Below are positions 24,816-26,072 of a stretch of 64,000 nt of DNA, in pieces. Location of the stretch: the sequence record ON470615.2; one strand, 5' to 3'. The position numbers were made by a program, and so were the translations under genes. The notes beneath the pieces are model-generated. The model was not told where the DNA came from. It worked only from the letters and a program-made list of their open reading frames with translations, and did no database searches. Position 1 is the stretch's first letter; each line of letters starts with the position of its first letter. This DNA is from Escherichia phage vB_EcoM-673R5.

Positions 24816-26072
24816 TTAATTACTGACAGTTTTGGGTTTTGGGAAACTGAACAGTAAATCACGATAGTACTCGTATTGTTTCTGGCGCAACTCGATTTCA
24901 CGCGGAAGACCTTCGGTAATCGAATTTGTTAAGACGTCAAATTTGTCGAGAGTCGCTGCGATTCTGGCTTGTTCGTTATAAGATTCCTCCGGATTACCGG
25001 GGCATGGGAAGGGGATTTTAATGTCTTTGAGCATCGGTTTAGTTAGCTGGGGTATGCCTGCCTCAGGGATTTTGTAATTATTCTCAATGGTTTTCATGAA
25101 GTAATAAGCGTACTTCAAGTTTAATTTAATTTTTGGCGTCAAGACCAGCAGTCGCACTATCGGAAAGAATGGTCTACTTCTATAGCTAGTCCATCCAATA
25201 GTACCTCTTGCAGATATGGTGAGACTCGGTTTCTCAATCTTGGCTCTGTCAGTCCATCCATATAGTGATTTATTACCTATACCGTTTGATAAAACGGGGA
25301 TGCTGAATTCCTCGGTCTCAAATTCGGATAAGGCATCTTTTGGTGCATCGCCGCCTGCAACAATGTCAAAAACATCATCCAATGCCTTCCACTCAACCTC
25401 ACCCTCTTTAAAACTCAACAACTGGTCGCGATAGTAGTTGTACTGTTTTTTACGCATGGTAAGCTCAGCGGTAAGCTCAGCGGTAAGCTCAGCGGTAAGT
25501 GCAGTAAATTTATCCAGAATCCGAACGATTTCAGACTGGATGGCAAGGGATTTTTCCGGGGTATCTGGGCAGGGTAATGGGATTTTGAATCTTCCCATTA
25601 CGGCTGAGTTCAAGTTGTTAATGGTTGAGCTATTCAACATTTCATCAAGATATTTTTGGAAAATATCACTTGTTAAAACGTGAAATAAATAACGTGGATT
25701 TAATTTTTCATCGCATCTGACGACCCCCATAAATCCGCCAAAGTAGTAGTCAATATCAGATTCTATGTAAGCAACTTTACCGACATGTTCACGGCTACCA
25801 CTTGCTGCGCTAATTAGAATGTCGTTCTTATATAGCTTTTGCGAACTCTTTACTTTGGTGTCGAACCTCACCACCTTGACATCATTTAAATTTAAACAAT
25901 TATTAGACAGCGTGATATTGTTAGCGCGAAGCACTTTATAGCCTTGACCATCCGCGCTTTCACTCGATTTGCTATAAATTAAACCACGTACATATTTTGC
26001 GACTTCTCCGAGAGTCTTCCACTCAACCTCAACCCCATCCAGCAATTTTTCCAGATAACTCATCTCGCTCAT
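24816..26072 (-). CDS. hsdS: type I R-M specificity subunit, type IC architecture with three TAEL repeats
   Basis: 418 aa intact. Two target-recognition regions separated by [39 protein letters not shown]; C-terminal conserved [13 protein letters not shown]. Confidence 0.85.
25458..25505. repeat. 12-bp tandem repeat (ggtaagctcagc x3 plus degenerate fourth) encoding the TAEL repeats of HsdS
   Basis: Three perfect copies 25458-25493, fourth copy ggtaagtgcagt. Confidence 0.9.

Follow-up and report, generated by a model that had tools for sequence, protein, structure and literature searches.

The hsdS gene of Escherichia phage vB_EcoM-673R5, within the 64,000-nucleotide stretch of sequence record ON470615.2 analysed here (hereafter the window), carries a perfect tandem array of 12-bp units encoding three TAEL repeats, and this array very probably serves as a ruler, setting length in the specificity subunit of an EcoR124-family (type IC) restriction-modification system on a P1-like phage-plasmid. 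The interpretation starts from features that were directly observed, namely the array itself, membership of the EcoR124 family, the equal lengths of two helices in HsdS, and natural alleles with one, two and three copies. The TAEL repeat mechanism has been known since 1989 and the cryo-EM structure of a near-identical EcoR124 complex already places the repeat; the window appears to present a new combination of target-recognition domains (TRDs), or possibly EcoDXXI itself, in this thoroughly characterised family.

The TAEL array and the HsdS subunit

Tandem Repeats Finder places the array at 25458-25499 (unit GGTAAGCTCAGC, period 12, 3.5 copies, 100% matches, score 84), and this is the sole tandem array with a score of at least 50 in the entire 64 kb window. 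Its 30 bases that exactly repeat the preceding unit lie far beyond what chance would produce in 64 kb. A preliminary description of this DNA had claimed three perfect tandem 12-bp units in hsdS, and these are indeed present, with three TAEL copies in the translation of the open reading frame at 24816-26072. The range given there, 25458-25505, holds for the perfect array at 25458-25499 but extends too far, since the last six bases (25500-25505) are the remainder of a degenerate fourth unit, GGTAAGTGCAGT. The features of the gene are as follows.

24816..26072, minus strand: hsdS, 418 aa, intact in the window (open reading frame list, translation; Pfam Methylase_S, 6.4e-47)
25593..26015, minus strand: TRD1, variable N-terminal target-recognition domain, about aa 20-160; EcoR124 TRD1 unmatched
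25398..25592, minus strand: central conserved region, about aa 161-225, helix D1 of the coiled coil, holding the TAEL array
25500..25505, minus strand: rest of the degenerate upstream unit, ACT GCA, the 'TA' of TAL (direct sequence reading)
25458..25499, minus strand: TAEL array, 12 bp x 3.5, encoding L192-(TAEL)x3-T205 of HsdS (Tandem Repeats Finder, translation)
25461-25496, minus strand: codons of the three TAEL copies, aa 193-204 of HsdS (open reading frame translation)
24993..25397, minus strand: TRD2, variable C-terminal target-recognition domain, about aa 226-360; EcoR124 TRD2 unmatched
24816..24992, minus strand: C-terminal conserved region (helix D2) and stop codon; matches EcoR124 HsdS 347-404

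The three-copy number is not an assembly artefact. Assembly errors are clearly present in the window, but they are single-base deletions rather than 12-bp units, and reads of any type easily cover an array of 42 bp. Moreover, 23 complete E. coli plasmids, assembled independently, carry the 1257-nt hsdS at 100% identity (RefSeq CDS WP_072196859.1), as does the IMG/VR locus L027, so that the collapse or expansion raised in the preliminary description as a possible objection has a negligible probability.

HsdS contains two Pfam Methylase_S domains, and three of its stretches (aa 1-34, 161-263 and 361-418) match EcoR124 HsdS (PDB 7bst_A), while the intervening regions are unmatched. The central region aligns with EcoR124 HsdS 140-236 with a single gap, the 4 aa of the third TAEL. 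When the C-terminal region is joined to the N-terminal one, the product aligns in turn with the central region; this is the organisation of a type IC HsdS, which begins and ends inside helix D2. With three TAEL copies, helix D1 aligns with the C-terminal conserved helix D2 over 60 aa without a gap, whereas one, two or four copies require one; because three is the only gapless number among these four, it is the symmetric state of the HsdS coiled coil.

The two recognition domains of the window occur apart from each other in other alleles, which suggests that domain shuffling gave rise to the window HsdS. Its TRD1 is also found in P0014, a common P1-like-plasmid allele (235 contigs), and in P0030, and its TRD2 is 100% identical in P0044/L012 (13 contigs), which pair it with another TRD1. 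TRD1 shows a weak match to EcoKI TRD1 (E 3.4e-12), and transfer of the AAC half-site on this basis was rejected because the identity, ∼30%, is too low. In a natural HsdS of 449 aa on an ENA contig (P0002), both recognition domains are the window's TRD1 (TRD1-CR-TRD1), and there are two TAEL copies; by analogy with the engineered EcoR124/EcoDXXI truncation homodimers, the target of this protein should be an interrupted palindrome.

A type IC cassette on a P1-like phage-plasmid

Genes and neighbours of the cassette are listed below. On the minus strand the order is hsdM (26069-27624), hsdS (24816-26072), a 121-bp gap and hsdR (21584-24694).

21509..27729, no strand assigned: whole 6.2-kb hsd cassette, with P1 homology on either side (blastn against P1)
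26069..27624, minus strand: hsdM, its stop overlapping the hsdS start (ATGA); frame broken in the window
24695..24815, minus strand: hsdS-hsdR intergenic region, 121 bp, with a promoter-like site at 24788..24759 (a consensus match alone, without statistical enrichment)
21584..24694, minus strand: hsdR, frame broken in the window; longest open reading frame 22269-24518
20813..21318, plus strand: pap homologue (P1 acid-phosphatase-like, HAD/PNKP phosphatase domain), left neighbour
27806..28406, plus strand: phd-doc addiction module, right neighbour

The family tests on HsdM and HsdR were run on an intact reference copy of the locus (L001, 518 aa and 1038 aa). HsdM is identical to EcoR124 HsdM (7bst_D) at 513 of 518 positions (99%) and contains the Pfam domains N6_Mtase and HsdM_N, and HsdR matches EcoR124 HsdR (2w00_A) over 1-1038 with 2255 bits and contains HSDR_N, SWI2_SNF2, T1R_D3-like and EcoR124_C domains. 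The repeat codons, ACC GCT GAG CTT, are those in EcoR124 hsdS primers (PMC10644984). Type I families are set by complementation, antibody cross-reaction and sequence (PMC3874165), and given the 99% identity in HsdM, complementation with EcoR124 HsdM and HsdR is very likely. The assignment to type IC made in the preliminary description is upheld by HsdM, HsdR, the conserved regions of HsdS and the repeat codons; because all of these match EcoR124 and the TRDs do not, the system is, on sequence grounds, an EcoR124-family enzyme with another pair of target-recognition domains.

The likeness to the type IC prototype, EcoR124I/EcoR124II of plasmids R124 and R124/3, thus extends over HsdM, HsdR, the HsdS conserved regions, the 12-bp unit and the arrangement of the genes, including the hsdM stop overlapping the hsdS start and hsdR after a 121-bp gap; the promoter-like site in that gap is in line with hsdR having its own promoter, as it does in EcoR124. 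EcoR124II also has three TAEL copies. The differences are that the residue following the array is T in the window and N in EcoR124, that the carrier here is a P1-like phage-plasmid, and that both TRDs are unrelated, so that the half-sites of the window enzyme would not be GAA and RTCG. EcoprrI (CCA N7 RTGC), a type IC enzyme with an embedded PrrC anticodon nuclease, has three TAEL copies like the window, but it is chromosomal, whereas the present cassette lacks prrC and leaves only 121 bp between hsdS and hsdR.

Homology to P1 (blastn) covers window 18997-21508 (P1 81970-84482, 98.2%) and 27730-30000 (P1 87970-90241, 97.2%), breaking off just after pap and resuming just before phd. Given this break at P1 84482 and return at 87970, the cassette replaces P1 84483-87969 (pmgT-pmgU-pmgV-upfMNO-hot-lxr-humD), in agreement with the proposed position between the pap-like gene and phd-doc. 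The cassette had also been called AT-rich, which it is only mildly (GC 0.41-0.47 versus 0.46-0.51 in the flanks). The flanks are 97-98% identical to P1 and keep the P1 gene order around the locus. The window as a whole is 99.8% identical to E. coli plasmids of ∼96 kb, e.g. p50579417_1, and the reference plasmid carries C1, a Cre-like integrase, Ref, a DarB-like methylase, RepA/ParAB, lpa, pacAB, phd-doc and an invertible tail-fibre segment with its invertase. Judged by this gene content and homology, the window is a P1-like phage-plasmid (Punavirus), some of which carry a type I system (Venturini 2019, PMC6906374).

In the plasmid NZ_CP033882.1 (L004), the regions equivalent to the window are annotated with an anti-phage dGTPase, an IS200/IS605 transposase and a TnpB-like gene, and a RelA/SpoT-domain protein lies at the place of P1 res/mod; the backbone therefore holds, in addition to the type IC system, several accessory genes of the defence type. 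A strong terminator-like hairpin (10 pairs, 6 of them GC, then a T-run) occupies 21367-21390 on the minus strand, ∼195 bp downstream of the end of hsdR, within the segment common to P1 and the downstream flanks of R124/3 and EcoDXXI.

In the curated P1 record, the junction segments are marked as identical to the flanks downstream and upstream of the EcoDXXI hsd locus and to that downstream of R124/3 hsdR, which places these classical type IC loci in the same slot as the cassette. The EcoDXXI, R124/3 and window loci thus share one insertion slot, pap-phd, in P1-like phage-plasmids, elements that also spread resistance genes. The location raises the possibility that the window HsdS is no new allele but the already characterised S.EcoDXXI (TCA N7 RTTC), or else S.EcoprrI. 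EcoDXXI resembles the window in location, with P1 junctions (84482 and 87970) exactly as the curated record gives them for its flanks, after pap and before phd, and in its three TAEL copies. Three copies and location are nevertheless insufficient to identify the enzyme, since three copies also occur with at least 13 other recognition-domain combinations. In addition, no similarity was found between TRD2 of the window and EcoR124 TRD1, though the EcoR124 half-site GAA lies within GAAY, the complement of the EcoDXXI half-site RTTC; this lack of similarity is weak evidence against EcoDXXI. We therefore consider it unlikely that the window HsdS is one of these two known subunits.

Taken at face value, the window sequence would describe a dead system. 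The hsdR-hsdS-hsdM cassette announced in the preliminary description is there with all three genes, but hsdM and hsdR are split by 1-2 bp deletions. In hsdM one C is missing from the CCCC run within CCCCAGG (∼27199-27202), leaving two open reading frames (27157-27630 and 26069-26992), and in hsdR six bases are missing at five places (∼24586, 22301 twice, 22100, 21930 and 21689), leaving several. A decayed, non-functional remnant with pseudogenes for hsdM and hsdR, in which the repeat has no current role, would account for these breaks. Against it, comparison with 23 intact relatives over 6.5 kb reveals only nine missing bases (one in hsdM, six in hsdR), zero substitutions, and an untouched hsdS; phd (one A missing at ∼27946-27951) and the pap frame (a deletion near 20843) are affected likewise. 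Over 52.6 kb, the window differs from NZ_CP033882.1 by 70 deleted, 7 inserted and 9 mismatched bases, with further deviations at, e.g., 10019 and 30683. Homopolymers of 4 or more hold 45 of the 70 deleted bases, and Dcm sites (CCWGG), which make up 2% of bases, hold 14 (∼10-fold enrichment), a concentration that is the signature of nanopore error. The source of the deviations looks like an unpolished nanopore assembly, and the frameshifts in hsdM and hsdR are most likely sequencing errors, which makes a decayed remnant very improbable. Many open reading frames of the window, including hsdM, hsdR, phd and pap, will look frameshifted for this reason, and flagging the hsdM and hsdR breaks as probable sequencing errors prevents a false call of 'orphan HsdS' or 'pseudogene'.

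Natural alleles with one, two and three copies

Besides L027, the three-copy allele with the window's TRD pair was found in 23 complete E. coli plasmids, whose sources in several countries range over humans, livestock, food and water; three-copy hosts include AR_0372 (NZ_CP027133), FDAARGOS_1280 (NZ_CP069970) and 50579417 (NZ_CP033882). In p1002-1 (strain Z1002, NZ_CP021203) there are two copies, and one 12-bp unit is the sole difference from the three-copy plasmids in 6.5 kb. The complete E. coli collection thus holds 23 full-length three-copy records and one two-copy record of this hsdS, from many hosts and countries and 100% identical except for the repeat. By exact look-up, the two-copy protein of the window HsdS is present on 44 contigs and the one-copy protein on one 92-kb contig, which could be an assembly error; versions with zero, four or five copies were not found by the same look-up.

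A DNA pattern with fixed anchors flanking the array matched 61 loci in viral, genome and metagenome collections (41 with two copies, 20 with three), one match coming from the genome contigs, and a scan of viral contigs for four to six copies found none. When full-length proteins were grouped into backgrounds by recognition-domain identity, three further backgrounds had both two- and three-copy alleles (L008/L014, L028/L041 and L036/L046). P0014 (two copies, 235 contigs) and P0030 (one copy), which have the window's TRD1, are identical save one TAEL, so that, with the window's own, five backgrounds are polymorphic in total. A repeat of 12 bp x 1.9 in hsdM (26154-26176), taken as a control, is invariant in copy number across 40 loci. 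This second repeat (TTCAGCTCAGCA), on the minus strand in the 3′ part of the gene, encodes AELN-AELK near the HsdM C-terminus, and has AGCTCAGC in common with the TAEL unit.

Both common states are well represented in complete E. coli genomes, where 603 of the 1036 records with this region match a 57-nt two-copy query over its full length, and single-piece three-copy matches are frequent among the remaining records. Counting the three-copy records with a 69-nt query was rejected, as overlapping pieces join on two-copy targets.

The protein collection gives a different picture, with two TAEL in 114 of the best 120 representative proteins, one in the other six and three in none. A 62-aa central-region query with four TAEL returned nothing but short fragments, none with three or more copies, and carries no weight on copy number. 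All nine three-copy HsdS proteins translated from public contigs, together with WP_072196859.1, are missing from this collection, whereas their two- and one-copy counterparts are present. The lack of three-copy proteins among the best 120 is therefore an artefact of the collection, which appears to be without 3xTAEL proteins and biased in its repeat counts, and a rarity of three copies derived from it was rejected.

Spacer length, rate of change and biological role

EcoR124I, with two TAEL copies, recognises GAAN6RTCG and EcoR124II, with three, GAAN7RTCG; both are active enzymes, and the change in copy number arises by unequal crossing-over (Loenen et al., 2014, PMC3874165). The rule invoked for the window at the outset, with two copies giving N6, three giving N7 and unequal crossing-over effecting the change, agrees with that review, in which EcoDXXI and EcoprrI have three copies each and three is the apparent optimum (PMC3874165). 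The methylated adenines lie 7 nt apart with two copies and 8 nt apart with three (PMC12707154). In the literature searched we found no report for the RefSeq accessions of the locus, for P1-like elements with hsdS, or for the methylation motif of these plasmids.

On this model, each 12-bp unit lengthens helix D1 by the four residues TAEL, roughly one turn of the helix; D1 is part of the antiparallel coiled coil that keeps the two target-recognition domains apart, and at three copies it is as long as its partner D2. The three-copy enzyme would then methylate adenines 8 nt apart in its bipartite site, its spacer exceeding by 1 bp that of an otherwise identical two-copy allele. For the window allele, extending what holds for EcoR124I/II and EcoR124-EcoDXXI hybrids, we infer methylated adenines 8 nt apart and 1 bp more of spacer than in the two-copy Z1002 allele; an N7 spacer is likely by extrapolation, although the N count depends on the half-sites. 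Through slippage or unequal crossing-over, the 42-bp perfect direct repeat may occasionally lose or gain a unit, and one such change would suffice for a new specificity. Activity of the enzyme in this host is presumed, as are this mechanism and a rate of copy change low enough in this lineage to give polymorphism on an evolutionary scale rather than fast phase variation.

The preliminary description had gone further and seen in the repeat number a switch of specificity. Natural alleles that differ only in copy number agree with a change of this kind, but 'switch' overstates its rate, since hsdS is identical in all 23 full-length three-copy records. Laboratory derivatives of strains 2020N21-110 and 2022N21-074 likewise kept three copies in all their consensus assemblies. 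The array is stable on epidemiological time scales, and the term recurrent evolutionary polymorphism suits it better than phase variation. It resembles the phase-variable type I hsdS genes with simple-sequence repeats (Atack et al., 2020, PMC7383803) in that a repeat inside hsdS alters the specificity or activity of the methyltransferase. It differs from them in its 12-bp unit, which stays in frame and would thus affect spacer length rather than on/off expression, and in its low copy number (1-3), stable across many isolates.

Such stability is also what would be seen if the array were a fixed structural feature, a symmetric helix of optimal length, with copy-number variants as rare neutral or deleterious accidents rather than an adaptive means of changing specificity. 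The identity of hsdS in 23 of 23 full-length three-copy records across hosts and countries, the retention of three copies in all derivatives of the two strains, and the equal lengths of D1 and D2 at what the review calls the apparent optimum all speak for this explanation. It fits less well with the two-copy allele with identical recognition domains, whose presence on 44 contigs marks it as established and not a one-off, with polymorphism in five domain backgrounds, with the two states both being common in complete E. coli genomes (603 of 1036 full-length two-copy matches, three-copy matches frequent), and with the activity of both EcoR124I and EcoR124II. We therefore regard a fixed feature as possible but doubtful.

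The mechanism is textbook and little here is conceptually new, so that the value of the finding is practical and descriptive. The natural three- and two-copy pair, otherwise identical (e.g. AR_0372 or 50579417 versus Z1002), together with the one-copy form, would allow the ruler model to be tested in a new TRD background. As two and three copies are both common and at least five backgrounds are polymorphic, a single-step spacer change would be a route by which specificity evolves repeatedly in nature. More tentatively, the TAEL array on P1-like phage-plasmids may perhaps act as a population-level diversifier of specificity with at least three functional states (one, two and three copies, with spacers of n-1, n and n+1). 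The one-copy state was not described for natural type IC systems in the literature searched; if the array is a diversifier, natural one-copy alleles such as HAJ5933752.1 and P0030 would encode enzymes that are active on a shorter spacer, and closely related phage-plasmids could change the restriction barrier between them while keeping their recognition domains.
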